Assembly: GCA_964016885.1 (NCBI GenBank)
Contig: OZ024758.1
Location: 31,186,001 to 31,250,000 of the forward strand
Length of the DNA: 64,000 bases
Direction of reading: 5' to 3'
Origin: Eledone cirrhosa
Lineage: Eukaryota
The notes under the pieces are model-generated. The model was not told the DNA's origin. It ran no database searches and saw only the letters and a program-made list of their open reading frames with translations. Below are positions 16,786-26,163 of this stretch, in pieces (position 1 is the stretch's first letter; every line of letters begins with the position of its first letter). Made by a program: the position numbers and the translations under genes.

Positions 16786-16873
16786 TCCTCGACTACGTAG
16801 TTTCGTGGCATAAACAAAAACAATATATCAAAGATATAGAGTCCTTGCGAGGTCTGCCGACTTATCAAGAGGA
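16786..16873 (-). ncRNA. Type I hammerhead ribozyme, U3-A8 core
   Basis: tcctc-TTGATAA-gtcggca...tgccac-GAAA-ctacgtag-TC-gagga. Confidence 0.8.
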
Positions 16874-18418
16874 TACCTCATTTTACTAGTCTCAAGAACG
16901 CGTCTACACGACGTGAGAAAGAATCCCAAAAGGCGGAGGGGGAGACAGTCACGCGATATAACGGTCGAGAAACAGAGCTAAGCCTCTTATAACCACGAAG
17001 AAAATACCACGGAGGCGGAGGGGACGAAGAAAATACCACGGAGGCGGAGGGGGTATTCATATCGAGGCCGTAGAATATATATATATATTTATATATATAT
17101 TTATTTATATTATATATGTGTGTGTGTGTGTATATATATCTTTATATATGTGTATGTGTATGTGTGTGTATGTATGTGTGTGTATATATATATATATATG
17201 TGTGTGTATATATGTATATATATATATATATATATATATATATATATATATATATATATATATATATATATATATATATATATATATATATATATATATA
17301 TATATATATATGTATGTGCGTATGTGTGTATATATATATATATATATATATATATATATATATATATATTTATATGTGGGTATGTATGTGTATGTGTGTA
17401 TATACATGAGTGTGTTTATATATGTGTCTAGATATGTGTATATATATATATATATATATATATATATATGTATGTATGTGTGTTGTGAATGTATATATAT
17501 ATATATATATATGTATGCGTGTATGTGTGTATATATATATATATATATGTCTGTATGTGTGTATATGTCTATGTATTTATATGTGTATATGTATGTGTCT
17601 CTATATGTATGTGTGTGTGTATGTGTATGCGTATTTATATGGTGTGTGTATGTATATGTATGTGTATGTATGTGTTTATGTATATGTGTATGTATATGTA
17701 TGTATATATATGTATATATATATATATATATATATATATATGTATATGTATGTATATCGATGTATATTTTATATTTTACTTGTTTTTATATATATATATA
17801 TATATATATATATATATATATATATATATATATATATATATATATTTTCTTGATATATTTCTTTTTTATTTTTATTTTATTTTTATTTCTAAATTTATAG
17901 ATACATTTATAAATAGGCAGCTTGCTGACACCGCTAAATACTGACCTCTCCCCCCCCCCCCACCTACTTTCTGTATCTGGATCTAAATATGTGTGGCAGT
18001 GTTTATGTGCGCGCATTAATGTCCATATGCTTATGATAATAGTATATACACACATATATATGTGTGTGGGGGTGTGTGTGTGTATGTATGTTCGTGGTTG
18101 TGTGTATGTTTATGTGTGTGTGTGAATGTACGTATATGTGTGAGTATATAAATGTGTGTGTATATTTGTTTTTATACGTATTTTATCTGTAGATTATAAA
18201 CATACAGAGACATTAGCCTTGAATTTTTGTATTTACATACATCTTTTTGGCATGCGTATGCATGTGAACATACATCTTTATGCATATCTGTGAACGAAGT
18301 TAATTACATATATACACACACTTAACTGTATAAACTTTTTGTATTTTCATTGGTCAATTTGAATTCTGTTCCCAAACAGACCTGTAATTTTGAATTGTGT
18401 TATTATCAATAAATATAT

Positions 18419-18572
18419 TTCATTATTTCTGAAGACGGCATATATATGTGTTGGTATGTATATTTAATTTTGATAGTTTGTATAATTTTGTATAATTTTG
18501 TACATAGATCTGTTGAATATGCATGCCAATTCTAACACATATATATCCTAGAAACGATCGTTAAATAATGAA
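18419..18572 (+). ncRNA. Type I hammerhead ribozyme with ~115-nt stem II
   Basis: ttcattattt-CTGAAGA-(atatatatgtgttgg...ctaacacatatatat)-GAAA-cgatcg-TT-aaataatgaa. Stem I is 10 bp. Confidence 0.8.
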
Positions 18573-18732
18573 CTTTTTTTGTTTAATATAAGGAACTGTT
18601 TCATTGTTTTATTCATTATTTTTTTAATATTTTATATATATATATATTTATATTTTATATATATATATATATATGTATATATATATATATATATATATGT
18701 ATATATATATACACACATATATATATATATAT

Positions 18733-18930
18733 AAGTGGTAACACAACAATTAGTTCACCATACCGAGAACAATTGCTTCACCTTATTCGGATACGCAACT
18801 CGTGACCATTACGAGTTGAGGATCCACTAAGGTGAAACAATTGTTCTCGTTATGGTGAAGTAACTGTTGTGTTACCACTTCTAATTCGTCCCATGGACGA
18901 CGGATATTATCTTCCTGTGTTCTACCTCTC
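18733..18930. mobile_element. Fold-back unit with HHR (18806-18855, +, C3U core)
   Basis: Arms 18733-18803 and 18811-18880. The HHR reads ccattacgag-TTGAGGA-tccactaaggt-GAAA-caattg-TT-ctcgttatgg. Confidence 0.75.
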
Positions 18931-19767
18931 TCTATACATATATATATATATATATATAATATATATATAATATATTTATTAATATATATAATATATTTAT
19001 TAATATATATATATAATATATATATTTATATATATATATATATATAATATATATAAAAAATATAATATATATATATATAATATATATATATAATATATAT
19101 ATATAATATATATAATATATATATATATAATATATATAATATATATATAAAATATATATATATATATATAATATATATATAGATAATATATATATATATA
19201 TAATATATATATATATATATATAATATATATATAATATATATACTATAAATATATAATATATATATATATAATATATATATAATATATATAATGTATATA
19301 TATAATATATATAATATATATATATAATATATATATAATATATATAATATATATATAATATATATAATATATATATATATAATATATATATATATAATAT
19401 ATATATATATATATATATATATATATAATATATATATATATATAATATATATATATATATATAATATATATATATATTATATATATATATAATATATATA
19501 TATTTATTAAAATAACAGATTAAAGTTTAAGCAAAGAATCTATATATATATAATATATATAATATATATATATATAATATATATATATATATATATAATA
19601 TATATATATATATATATATATAATATATATATATAATATATATATATATATATATATATATATATATATATATATATATATATATATATATATATATATA
19701 TATATATATATATATATATATATATATATATATATAATATATATATATATGTATATAAATGTATTTA

Positions 19768-22776: not shown

Positions 22777-24167
22777 TATATTTAGTTTGATTTGTAATTA
22801 TTTGGGAAACTAGCCGATAAATCTTTCGATTTCTTCTTTTTATTATTCTTTTTATTTTTTATTTTTTATTTTTATTTTTATTTTTATTTTAAACATTCTT
22901 CATGAATAATTAAACTACCCTAAAAGTTGATGCTCCAAATATATCGAATAAACGTTACACTAGATAAACTTCTATATTAAATATAAGAACATATGTAGAC
23001 CAAATGGGCATCCTAAACTTTTGAAATGATTTCTGCTAGACGTGATTTGGTAAATAATTTTTAGCTTTATCTGTTTTCGACTCTGATGCTTATAATGAAC
23101 TTGGCAATATATTGTCAATTAATTTTGAAGGGTTGATCTTTGTGGTCGATTTGCGTGGCATATTATGTTTTTATTTTTTATTATTTTAATATTTTTTAAT
23201 ATTTTTAATTTTTAATATTTTTAATATTTTTATTTTTAATATGTAATATTTTTTAGTTTTCTATTTTATTTATTTGTTTATTATTTTTATTATTATTATT
23301 ATTATTATTATATTTTTTGTTTTTGTTTCTGATATTTTTATTAATATATTGAAATCTGTTCTCTATTTCTGCTTGATAGATAATCATGTAGAGTAAAGAC
23401 ATGAATAGTATTGTTAAAATTAATATAGACTCTATATATATGTGTATATATACACATATATGTATACTTAAATTTTTATAGCACAATGAGAATGTTCTCC
23501 GTGTGAAATAGGGGTTTGCAGAGTTGATCACGTAAATTCACATCGATGTTTGTAATTATCATATAAACATATGAGTTTTTAAAACTAGGCATAAGATCAT
23601 TACTTTTCACACATTATAGATACGTGTCTCATTCAGGAATACTGATATTTACATTATAGTGCCTGGTTTTTATACGAACTAGTATCTCTACATTAAAACA
23701 TAGGGTTTTTAAATTCTGCCTCGCCTATGTCTGGTTACTTTTCATTTTTCTCTCTATATAACGGCTGGTTTCTTTCCTAACCACATATATCTCCCTTACA
23801 TTAATACTAGAGCTAAATAAATAAATAAATAAATAAATGTATCATTGATACGTCATGCAACTACCTACTTTTCTCTATATATATATCTATCTCTATCTAT
23901 TTCCTCTCTCTATATATCTCTCTCTGTTTCTTTACATGAAGTTCTTCTCTTTATCTATCTTTCCATCTCTCTATTTTGTTGCATGCATTTCTTCTTTTTC
24001 TTTTTTCTTCTTTTTTCTTCTTTTTCTTCGTTTTCTTTCTTTCTTTCTTTCCTTCTTTCTTTCTTTCTTTCTGTTTACAATTTTTCACTGCCAAATCAAC
24101 TTTTTCAAATACAAGTCGATGTTGAACGGTATGTCAAATCTATTTATCTATAAAACTGTCTATATTG

Positions 24168-24233
24168 TATTTTGTCTGAAGAAGGCATAACATATTGTTA
24201 ATATGATATCCCTGAAATATATATAATGAAATA
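24168..24233 (+). ncRNA. pLTR hammerhead ribozyme (antisense copy 20270-20335; paralogue 51621-51686)
   Basis: tattttgt-CTGAAGA-agg..catatt gtt aatatg..cct-GAAA-tatata-TA-atgaaata. Confidence 0.8.
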
Positions 24234-24565
24234 AATATGGTTTTATAAATATAGTTTCCATATATTTAATATCGTAGATATACTCCAAATACTTGTTGAG
24301 TGCTTTTATATCAGTTATAAATATTTACTAGTTGTAACCCAACAATTTAAATATAACTTTCCATATATATATATATATATATATATATATATATATATAT
24401 ATATATATATATATATATATATATATATTAGAAAGTGATGTTTTTTTTACAAAATGAAAAATAACCGAGGTGTCCTACACGAGTGAAAGTATAAAGAAAA
24501 AGAGATGAAATCGAAAATGCAACTGGAGTCTTATTTTTTTTTTAAATATATATATTTATTTGGTT

Positions 24566-24603
24566 CCTTTACCGGTTTCGCAGTTCTTCTGCTTTTCAAA
24601 AGG
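24566..24603 (-). ncRNA. Minimal hammerhead ribozyme, U3-A8 core
   Basis: cctt-TTGAAAA-gcag aagaa ctgc-GAAA-ccgg-TA-aagg (38 nt). Confidence 0.8.
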
Positions 24604-26118
24604 TGAGTTGAGATGGAGGGTCTGTGGTTTTTCTCACATATATATATATATATATATATATATATATATATATATATATATATATATATATAAATATATA
24701 AAATATATATATATATATATATATATATATATATAAAAGGAATTGTGGTAAGGAACCAGATGGATCATAACGCACTAGAGTACTCAATACTTAGGGTAGT
24801 AGAGTGGGAAATAGGAGTACAGAAATAGCCGTCGAAACGGCTTGAGCTTTGCCGTCGAGGTCATACTGTTTCCTAAATATATGTATATATATATACATAT
24901 ATATATATATATATATATATATATTTATATATATATATCTTTATATATATATATATATATATATATATATACATATATATATATATATACCTTTATATAC
25001 ATATATAATTTTAAATATATATATATATACATATATATATATAATTTTAAATATATATATATATACATATATATCTATATATCTTTATATATATATATAT
25101 ATATATATATATATATATATATATATACATATGTATATATATGTTTATATATATATATACATATATATATATGTTTATATATATATATATATAAAGATAT
25201 ATATATATATATATGTATATATATATATATATGTATATATATATATAAAGATATATATATATATATATATATATATATATATATATATGTATATATATAA
25301 AGATAGATATATATATATAAAGATATATATATATATAAAGAAATATATATATATAAAGATATATATATGTATATATATATATATAGGAAAAAGTATGACC
25401 TCGACGGCAGAGCTCAAGCCGTTTCGACGGCTATTTCTGGATTCCTATTTTCCACTCTACTATCCTAAGTATTGAGTACTCCAGTGCGTTATGGTCCATC
25501 TGGTTCCTTACCACAATTCCTTTTATATATATATATATATATATATATATATATATATATATATATATCTTTATATATATATATATATATATATATATAT
25601 ATATATATATATATCTTTATATATATATATATATATATATTTATATAAATATAAATTGAGCGAGAATCGCATTTCGGCTGGTAGAAAAAAAAGAGACGTA
25701 ACGCAAAGTCCGAGTCATATATATATATATATTTTTTTTTATATATATATACATATATATATATAGGCGGTTCATAGAGACGTTCATTTTCAGAGAACGT
25801 CTCTATGAACCACCTACTAGAATATTATTCTACGACTTCTTTTATACCATAAACTGTTTTCTGAAAATCATGAATGTTTAATTCTTATAGAATTTCTAGT
25901 AATAATCAGGAACTGATTATACAGGGCGGTTGCCGGTCAAGCAGAAATTTAAAATTAGAATTGGCGCTCTGAAATAGCTATATATATATGAATGTATATA
26001 TAGTGTATTTTGCAATACACCGTATGCTTAATTAAAAGCATTTCGAAGACATTATGCTATTGTTTTAGAGTAGTGACAGTCACACTTACTTTACATTTTC
26101 AGCAAACAGGGGAGATAA

Positions 26119-26163
26119 AGCTGACAGAGCTATGTTTCGTACTGATTGGTACTTATCAAAGCC
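26119..26163 (-). ncRNA. Hammerhead ribozyme, U3-A8 core, at the centre of the 25992-26288 fold-back
   Basis: ggct-TTGATAA-gtac caatca gtac-GAAA-ca tagctc tg-TC-agct. Stems covary with the copy at 19967-20010. Confidence 0.85.

Follow-up and report, generated by a model that had tools for sequence, protein, structure and literature searches.

U3-A8 minimal hammerhead ribozymes were described in the Cercyon Penelope-like elements of Schistosoma mansoni (Cervera and de la Pena 2014, PMC4209133), where they were missed by the authors' first descriptor and about 1,300 hits were obtained with a U3-A8 descriptor. Covariation from C3-G8 to U3-A8 was reported for several natural hammerheads by Perreault et al. 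(2011, PMC3088659), who stated that the covaried cores were active in vitro and called U3-A8 rare. The Hydra and Neptune clades of Penelope elements (Craig et al. 2021, PMC8557442) are characterized by diagnostic protein motifs, a C-terminal GIY-YIG domain, tandem and inverted insertions, (TA)n targets and a hammerhead in the pLTR, the Hydra hammerheads being canonical in that account. The non-LTR retrozymes of metazoans (PMC7229834; 10.64898/2026.07.22.740005) do not code for proteins and are built of tandem units, each about 300-600 nt long with one type I hammerhead, a GC content below 45% and structured monomers. Cleavage was detected in only one of nine predicted retrozyme dimers by Li, Clavereau and Pollet (2026, 10.64898/2026.07.22.740005).

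The window analysed here is a 64,000-nucleotide stretch of Eledone cirrhosa DNA (contig OZ024758.1), in which an initial annotation had placed U3-A8 hammerheads of several unrelated families at five sites. The features are presented in Table 1. Taken as a whole, it is quite probable that U3-A8 is a family-fixed state in Penelope elements and retrozymes, with ribozymes that are predicted to cut and a 3-8 pair under moderate selection. The core covariation, type I topology and pLTR location are shared with Cercyon (PMC4209133). In contrast to Cercyon, there are more than 20,000 pattern matches here, spread over several unrelated families, two Penelope clades and retrozymes, and the stems III of families A, B/C, E and G are longer.

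Table 1. Positions of predicted hammerheads and related elements in the window.
Feature	Positions	Strand	Remarks
Family E element, 3'-truncated	1222-1775	+	unit about 602 nt; 5' half of U3-A8 hammerhead at 1671-1775
Family F fragment	1776-1881	+	origin of the false stem I strand in the 1669-1783 motif
Family A retrozyme, partial copy	16559-17071	-	between microsatellites
Family A type I hammerhead, U3-A8	16787-16872	-	UUGAUAA core; palindromic 5-bp stem III; N3 16868; predicted cleavage after C17 at 16791
Family B/C retrozyme	19767-20176	+	316-nt unit and 94-nt terminal redundancy, in (TA)n
Family B type I hammerhead, U3-A8	19967-20010	+	UUGAUAA core; on long flanking rod; N3 19971, C17 20006
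Hydra-clade Penelope element, canonical comparator	20349-24356	+	ORF 20539-22776; C3-G8 hammerheads at 24176 (+) and, inverted, 20327 (-)
Family D solo terminal repeat (pLTR) of Neptune-type Penelope element	24435-24626	-	full element in L286
Family D minimal type I hammerhead, U3-A8	24566-24603	-	UUGAAAA core; palindromic minimal stem III; N3 24599, A17 24570
Family G pLTR fragment (Hydra clade)	24743-24876		3' half of hammerhead
Further family G pLTR fragments	about 5082-5220, 25388-25516, 57355-57487
B/C retrozyme copy, inverted 5' segment	25854-26277	-	26003-26277 self-complementary
Family C (B subfamily) type I hammerhead, U3-A8	26119-26163	-	UUGAUAA core; N3 26159, C17 26123
Broken Neptune-type Penelope element, C3-G8 minimal hammerhead, canonical comparator	26719-29552	-	core from 26867 (-)

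At four of the five sites (16872, 19967, 26163 and 24603) the annotation of a type I hammerhead with U3-A8 was confirmed; these motifs are well formed, and stems I-III close in all of them. The three-way junction, N3-UGAN-N8-A, GAAA, UH and an open stem I were found in A, B, C and D, and in family E only in copies outside the window. In A, B/C, D and E the Watson-Crick 3-8 pair was U3-A8, and it was lacking in the C3·A8 subfamilies of family G. The hammerhead fold lay 1.1 kcal/mol above the MFE in family A, whose stem II carries a small bulge; folded in isolation, the family B and the monomeric family D hammerheads lay 6.4 and 7.1 kcal/mol above it, respectively. Self-cleavage after N17 is predicted for these motifs, and the palindromic stem III of family D suggests a dimer ribozyme. 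The Rfam hammerhead model gave no gathering hits across the five loci, and there was no hammerhead among the 150 hits listed of 163 on the window; these misses were not specific to U3-A8, because the C3-G8 copies of the window were missed too.

With positions 3 and 8 unconstrained, the family patterns had 6,746 (A), 2,114 (B/C) and 11,743 (D) matches across the genome and the reversed-pattern controls none each, therefore the motifs of these families are not chance occurrences. Chance matching in AT-rich repeat DNA can thus be discarded in the case of A, B/C and D and is exceedingly improbable as a general explanation. Shuffled controls do yield about 1-2 U3-A8 hits per 600 kb, and the 1669-1783 motif as first drawn was a junction artefact, but thousands of exact family matches, the covariation and a pLTR position where hammerheads are expected all speak against it. 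The claim of several unrelated families held for four families but not for five. The 19967 and 26119 copies are 82% identical over 235 nt and consequently belong to one family, whereas outside the ribozyme the similarity between A, B/C, D and E was not above that of shuffled controls.

The fifth site, 1669-1783, had been taken for a degenerate hammerhead and was re-assigned as a junction, where a family E copy ends at about 1775 and is followed by part of family F, which is unrelated and has C3-G8. The 3' strands of stems III and I are missing from the window copy; in the 26 other copies examined the sequence goes on with a long stem III and with a stem I strand that belongs to the copy itself. 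U3 and A8 were present in all 27 copies, which were picked by similarity to the window copy; a C·A apposition stands at the place of the usual G10.1-C11.1. The family is thus intact and has U3-A8, the 1669 copy being one of its truncated members. A superfamily of D, E and F with a common stem I and an internal switch between C3-G8 and U3-A8 was abandoned after the E/F junction had been recognised.

The counts at positions 3 and 8 in families B/C, A, D and E identify U3-A8 as the state of the family; a C3-G8 consensus with independent decay was not seen. In both A and D, U3-A8 was found in 99 of the first 100 matches listed, with no C3-G8 among them. Only 9 of the 2,114 B/C matches were without U3, none of the 2,114 was C3-G8 and none of the 9 had G8. 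The B/C stems covary: in 24 rows, 93.6% of cells were paired and six pairs were altered on both sides, such changes reaching three of four pairs in stem II and one of four in stem I. This level of pairing was attained by 0 of 500 shuffles, and slid partners gave 39-47%. The number of such two-sided changes did not stand out from the shuffles (212 of 500), and the remaining covariation measures are inflated by the relatedness of the rows.

Families A, B/C and E are, by their sequence organisation, TA-targeted tandem retrozymes. They consist of tandem non-coding units with one hammerhead each (591, 316/322 and 602 nt, respectively) and a longest ATG ORF of at most 75 aa, and circular folding gave z values of -6.8 (A), -5.0 (B), -4.6 (C) and -3.3 (E). 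Tandem and inverted insertions have their ends in (TA)n, with certain distances to C17 being preferred, and elsewhere in the genome copies of the family A tandem unit are up to 100% identical. The unit size, single type I hammerhead, GC content and structured monomers agree with those of the metazoan retrozymes (PMC7229834; 10.64898/2026.07.22.740005), from which the present families differ in the U3-A8 core and in strict (TA)n targeting with 5' inversions. The comparison with Penelope elements revealed no partner sequence of A, B/C or E, so the likely use of Penelope enzymes is judged from the shape of the insertions. A resemblance between B/C and the family G 3' UTR (z about 10) was dismissed as a TA tract. 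The family A unit was recovered as a single 620-621-nt contig in runs X1 and X5, and this was discarded as evidence of expression, since tandem DNA yields the same graph and low-depth family D fragments were also present in these runs.

The family D repeat flanks a Neptune-type ORF in L286; the L286 and L287 translations contain GxKF, DKG, a CX2-5CxxC linker and, at the C-terminus, GIY-YIG. The clade name is provisional, the linker being common to Nematis too. The C3-G8 element at 26719-29552 shares 44-50% protein identity with the family D element. The Hydra-clade ORF of the window had no match in Pfam, and a homolog search resulted in 822 relatives at about 40%.

In a census of 599,600 bases (60 stretches, evenly spaced picks and not random draws), 37 C3-G8 and 6 U3-A8 hits were found, with shuffled means of 0 and 1.8, respectively; no G3-C8 or A3-U8 occurred in it, and seven G3-A8 hits came from one low-scoring tandem repeat (L177). 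These counts are lower bounds, as the scanner overlooks family E, the 26867 hammerhead and the C3·A8 copy in L157. The annotated view of U3-A8 as a rare and active natural substitution matches PMC3088659; in comparison with the rarity stated there, U3-A8 made up 6 of the 43 Watson-Crick 3-8 hits in this sample.

Family G copies in the window are without the hammerhead core. Elsewhere in the genome, family G flanks an intact 786-codon frame with RWR, DKT, CxCx5C, CxxC and CxH. An RWK-like motif, DKT, the cysteine motifs, a C-terminal GIY-YIG and (TA)n targets place it in the Hydra clade, a motif-based assignment that follows PMC8557442; unlike the canonical Hydra hammerheads there, its cores are U3-A8 and C3·A8. 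The C3·A8 pattern gave 1,279 matches, a number similar to those of the neighbouring phases, and among the first 100 listed all had A8 and 96 had a G7 background. In subfamily G3, position 7 takes all four bases and U3-A8 was found in 90 of the first 100 listed. A8 and the other core positions are fixed over G2, G3 and G1, while N7 and the stems vary.

In a tree of the 3' UTR and ribozyme with positions 3 and 8 masked, C3·A8 monophyly was rejected (AU p 8.9e-7) after removal of 36 of 88 rows (all 20 G2, 8 G3 and 8 G1) for poor upstream alignment or TA tracts. The endonuclease-region DNA tree, rooted on G2, required two changes and also rejected C3·A8 monophyly (AU p 6.7e-8 and 1.1e-15); the rooted ORF tree has one partial outgroup row, six C3·A8 rows and a G3 support of 81/87. 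The two trees, made from different regions, gave the same ladder of U3-A8, then C3·A8, then U3-A8, and a short 146-column tree did not resolve the root among the C3·A8 rows. Measured against the youngest G copy, ORF identity drops stepwise (97-100, 94-97, 92-94, 88-90 and 86-88%, with one gapped G3 row at 75%). Differences shared by the C3·A8 copies were 45 synonymous to 11 non-synonymous, and private ones 30 to 54.

The C3·A8 copies might instead be a dead-end side branch or recombinants and not an intermediate of the source lineage, which we regard as rather unlikely. A first G tree, with truncated long-branch rows included, grouped 18 of 19 C3·A8 rows in one clade with no reversion needed, and was set aside as distorted by the truncated copies. 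Template switching between subfamilies is plausible, and just six C3·A8 rows enter the ORF tree. However, with the truncated rows removed, both regions gave the same ladder and rejected C3·A8 monophyly, and the fall in ORF identity is stepwise. We therefore lean towards a source lineage in which a catalytic tertiary pair was broken and then repaired, passing from U3-A8 to C3·A8, a state that lasted through two subfamilies or more and over 1,200 insertions, and back to U3-A8 and not on to C3-G8. As the mismatch arose in a G7 background, some activity may have been left to it by a C·A wobble or by slippage to a C3-G7 pair; otherwise autonomous elements would be able to transpose for long with a dead ribozyme. 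Such loss and regain in a related family is apparently new, U3-A8 itself being already published. No counterpart of the C3·A8 phase is described in the accessible part of PMC4209133. The literature search, as far as the texts were available, revealed no natural C3·A8 lineage and no such set of elements; one CUGANAA occurrence in PMC8490949, in its context, and the primary 3-8 exchange kinetics lay outside its scope.

The proposal that repeated double substitutions indicate selection for catalysis could be retained only in part. The pair is fixed within families and the B/C stems covary, but copy numbers do not count independent double substitutions because a single founding event suffices for each family, C>T and G>A would be favoured by mutation where the genome is rich in AT, and one lineage of the Hydra clade multiplied while carrying C3·A8, therefore the 3-8 pair is not strictly required. 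In the extreme case, U3-A8 would be inherited baggage, fixed by bias in a few founders, with weak or dispensable ribozymes and a pair barely selected. This is consistent with both changes being transitions toward A/T, with the amplification of the C3·A8 lineage to a level similar to its neighbours and with the insertion in vitro of hammerhead-dead Anolis Poseidon mutants (PMC11167929). It is nevertheless unlikely, given that A8 and the remaining core stayed fixed in G2, G3 and G1 although N7 and the stems change, that the youngest G subfamilies regained the pair and that the B/C stems covary. The loss and regain of U3-A8 in one lineage points to soft selection for the pair.

Two Penelope clades include families with U3-A8, and both clades have a C3-G8 relative in the window, which makes at least two origins, or ribozyme swapping, likely. 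A single ancestral U3-A8 module moved between elements, with one origin and no recurrence, appears doubtful. A, B/C, E and G are all predicted to cleave after GUC, A and G are alike in the starts of stems I and II, and retrozymes derive from pLTRs according to bioRxiv 10.64898/2026.07.22.740005; yet there is no similarity outside the ribozyme, D differs in architecture (minimal, A17), and D and G belong to different clades with their own C3-G8 relatives.

With at least two births, U3-A8 would have arisen by two transitions in one Neptune and one Hydra lineage and would be kept by moderate selection for the 3-8 pair, soft in autonomous elements, with family G passing through C3·A8 and back during continued amplification. 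The ribozymes of A, B/C, D, E and G would cut their own transcripts after position 17, and tandem retrozyme transcripts would yield unit-length RNAs able to circularise. The observed tandem and 5'-inverted insertions would result from nicking of (TA)n by a Penelope RT/GIY-YIG protein that begins reverse transcription internally.

It had been anticipated that a search for CUGANGA only would miss U3-A8 ribozymes, a point already made in PMC4209133; in this genome such surveys overlook over 20,000 motifs, and in the sample about one seventh of the hits. The hammerhead of Penelope-like elements may be needed, modulatory or parasitic. This genome supplies matched natural comparisons, two clades having relatives of both the C3-G8 and the U3-A8 kind and one lineage having the ordered states U3-A8, C3·A8 and U3-A8, in which cleavage rates could be compared with amplification history.

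The window, which belongs to an AT-rich animal assembly of 3.0 Gb and is crowded with (TA)n tracts and retroelement pieces, was scanned structurally with positions 3 and 8 left unconstrained. Four of the five sites at which the initial annotation had placed U3-A8 hammerheads were recovered as such, all of type I (families A-D in the table); the fifth, E, did not stand as drawn. It had been described as a degenerate ribozyme. In the window, the E copy is interrupted at about 1775, where a 3' fragment of family F (1776-1881), an unrelated C3-G8 family, is fused to it. In the 26 other E copies examined, a long stem III was followed by the family's own stem I strand, and U3 and A8 were present in 27 of 27 copies. 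In one intact copy, the hammerhead fold was 1.0 kcal/mol above the MFE. The E architecture is unusual, with a stem II of roughly 75 nt, a 30-nt insert in stem III and an atypical C·A at the stem II base, the last being family-wide (locus L118 and other copies).

Hammerheads and associated features in the window, and family G loci elsewhere in the genome
Feature	Position	Strand	Core	Non-coding tandem unit (nt)
Family A, type I hammerhead	16872-16787	-	U3-A8	591
Family B, type I hammerhead	19967-20010	+	U3-A8	316/322
Family C (= B family), type I hammerhead	26163-26119	-	U3-A8	316/322
Family D, type I hammerhead	24603-24566	-	U3-A8	
Family E			U3-A8	602
Family F, inverted hammerhead pair	1988-2967 (2133, 2715)	-, +	C3-G8	
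Other hammerheads	3661	-	C3-G8	
Other hammerheads	14211, 20327, 24176, 26867, 57104		C3-G8	
Single-change copy	3819	+	U3·G8	
Single-change copy	63980	-	U3·G8	
Older B/C copy	56218-56781			
Non-LTR retrotransposon frames (RT, zf-RVT; endonuclease + RT) and a 396-aa frame without Pfam match	39004-45405, 33600-35899, 61397-62587			
Family G fragments	5082-5220, 24743-24876, 25388-25516, 57355-57487			
Family G locus L226	G000:C1:11225500-11233500			
Further family G loci	L229-L245			

The claim of several unrelated families was retained for A, B/C, D and E, whose similarity outside the ribozyme, also when compared with family G, was no better than that of shuffles (one TA-tract match removed). 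B and C, sharing 82% identity over 235 nt, are a single family. An older B/C copy, about 74% identical to B, contains an inverted segment at which the hammerhead core is deleted. The F hammerheads have a long stem II and a palindromic stem III. The U3·G8 copy at 3819 is the inverted twin of the C3-G8 copy at 3661, and that at 63980 lies within a C3-G8 family; both are single-copy decay via C>T.

The family-wide core state was determined with exact genome-wide patterns in which positions 3 and 8 were free; the totals are complete and each control gave zero matches. None of the 2,114 B/C matches was C3-G8, and the nine lacking U3 (5 G3, 2 A3, 2 C3) all had A8. Among the first 100 matches listed, A (6,746 in total) had 99 U3-A8 and one U3-G8, and D (11,743) 99 U3-A8 and one G3-A8. 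Since these states are overwhelmingly U3-A8, a C3-G8 consensus with later decay does not describe the families. Pairing held in 93.6% of the 670 cells of 24 distinct B/C rows, against 39-47% with slid partners. Six pairs were altered on both sides, including three of four in stem II; the covarying-pair count alone was not above shuffle (212/500). A census of 60 evenly spaced 10-kb stretches (599,600 bases) resulted in 55 scanner hits: 37 C3-G8, 6 U3-A8, 7 from a single weak tandem repeat and 5 others, with no G3-C8 or A3-U8 match. The shuffled total was 6.4 (C3-G8 0, U3-A8 1.8), and a second comparable run was similar. Ten of the 37 C3-G8 hits (within loci L137-L182) come from a common family whose stem III has two pairs and is not palindromic.

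By structure, A, B/C and E are non-LTR retrozymes, the class described in PMC7229834 and bioRxiv 10.64898/2026.07.22.740005. Their arrays terminate in (TA)n, often with an inverted 5' segment; folded as circles, the monomers are well structured (z -6.8 to -3.3), and copies of A are up to 100% identical. An autonomous element carries D as its pLTR: locus L286 has two D hammerheads, no TA tract separating them, and between them a reading frame for RT/GIY-YIG with motifs of the Neptune type. The relative of this element in the window is 44-50% identical to it at the protein level and carries a C3-G8 hammerhead. The ends of insertions are concentrated at points away from the cleavage site, about 75 and 240 nt downstream in A, 135 in B, 140 in D and 15 and 95 in G; A, B, D and G have two or three preferred 3' ends apiece, at set distances from that site. 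This fits reverse transcription that starts internally, which PMC11167929 showed for a Poseidon element.

Structure, family fixation, covariation, carriers and insertion shape were shown. Self-cleavage is predicted after N17, for D as a dimer; the hammerhead fold of the D monomer is 7.1 kcal/mol above the MFE, and a competing B fold is 6.4 lower. Retrozyme monomers would then circularise and may be mobilised at (TA)n by Penelope proteins.

Family G, an additional U3-A8 family found in the census and present in the window as 3' halves, serves as the pLTR of a Hydra-clade element 3.1 kb long. At L226 a 786-codon open frame with the Hydra motifs given in section 11 of PMC8557442 is flanked by two hammerheads; the window's Hydra element is 40% identical to G and its hammerheads are C3-G8. 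The core state of G varies by subfamily. Among the first 100 matches listed, G2, the oldest (124 in total), had 91 U3-A8, the sole listed C3-G8 row having non-family sequence; G3 (1,333) had 90 U3-A8 and 6 C3·A8, with any of the four bases at N7; G1 (4,087) had 76 U3-A8 and 24 C3·A8. The G1 and G3 patterns may slightly overlap. The C3 pattern had 1,279 matches, of which the first 100 listed were all A8, 96 with G7.

For a 3' UTR tree, positions 3 and 8 were masked and 36 of the 88 rows left out for poor alignment; in this tree the C3·A8 rows formed a ladder with G3 on one side and a young U3-A8 clade on the other. Their monophyly was rejected (p-AU 8.9e-7, the group being named post hoc from the tree). 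Endonuclease-coding DNA repeated the ladder in a tree of 25 rows, six being C3·A8 and a single partial G2 row serving as root; position 3 changed twice on it, from U to C and back to U. This tree rejected monophyly of the C3·A8 rows (6.7e-8) as well as a single clade uniting the U3-A8 rows (1.1e-15). Relative to the youngest copy, changes common to the C3·A8 copies were mostly synonymous (45:11), private ones not (30:54); the lineage joining C3·A8 and young copies therefore coded for a selected protein. Against this order, the uncleaned tree placed 18 of 19 C3·A8 rows together, and the root of a 146-column tree fell among C3·A8 rows, which would imply two reversions instead of one. The trees suggest the history U3-A8, C3·A8, U3-A8, on the order of which recombination could bear.

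The initial annotation had taken repeated double substitution as selection for catalysis. The change from C3-G8 to U3-A8 would be two AT-ward transitions through a U·G wobble, so that recurrence would require selection against a mismatch only, not for U-A. Some selection on the 3-8 pair probably exists, because in G the pair was restored and A8 was retained even as N7 varied, yet the G history says that it may be weak enough to be suspended. This agrees with the in vitro insertion of Poseidon RNA with a dead hammerhead, reported in PMC11167929.

The A-E hammerheads are real ribozyme motifs, with predicted cleavage, in known element classes. Their core is a known natural variant (PMC3088659, section 8), and PMC4209133 places it in Penelope pLTRs, with about 1,300 matches in Schistosoma overlooked by the first descriptor. 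Supplements and one CUGANAA mention in PMC8490949 aside, the literature search gave nothing on a C3·A8 phase that reached high copy number and then reverted. With U3-A8 itself already known, what deserves further attention is the passage of family G through C3·A8.
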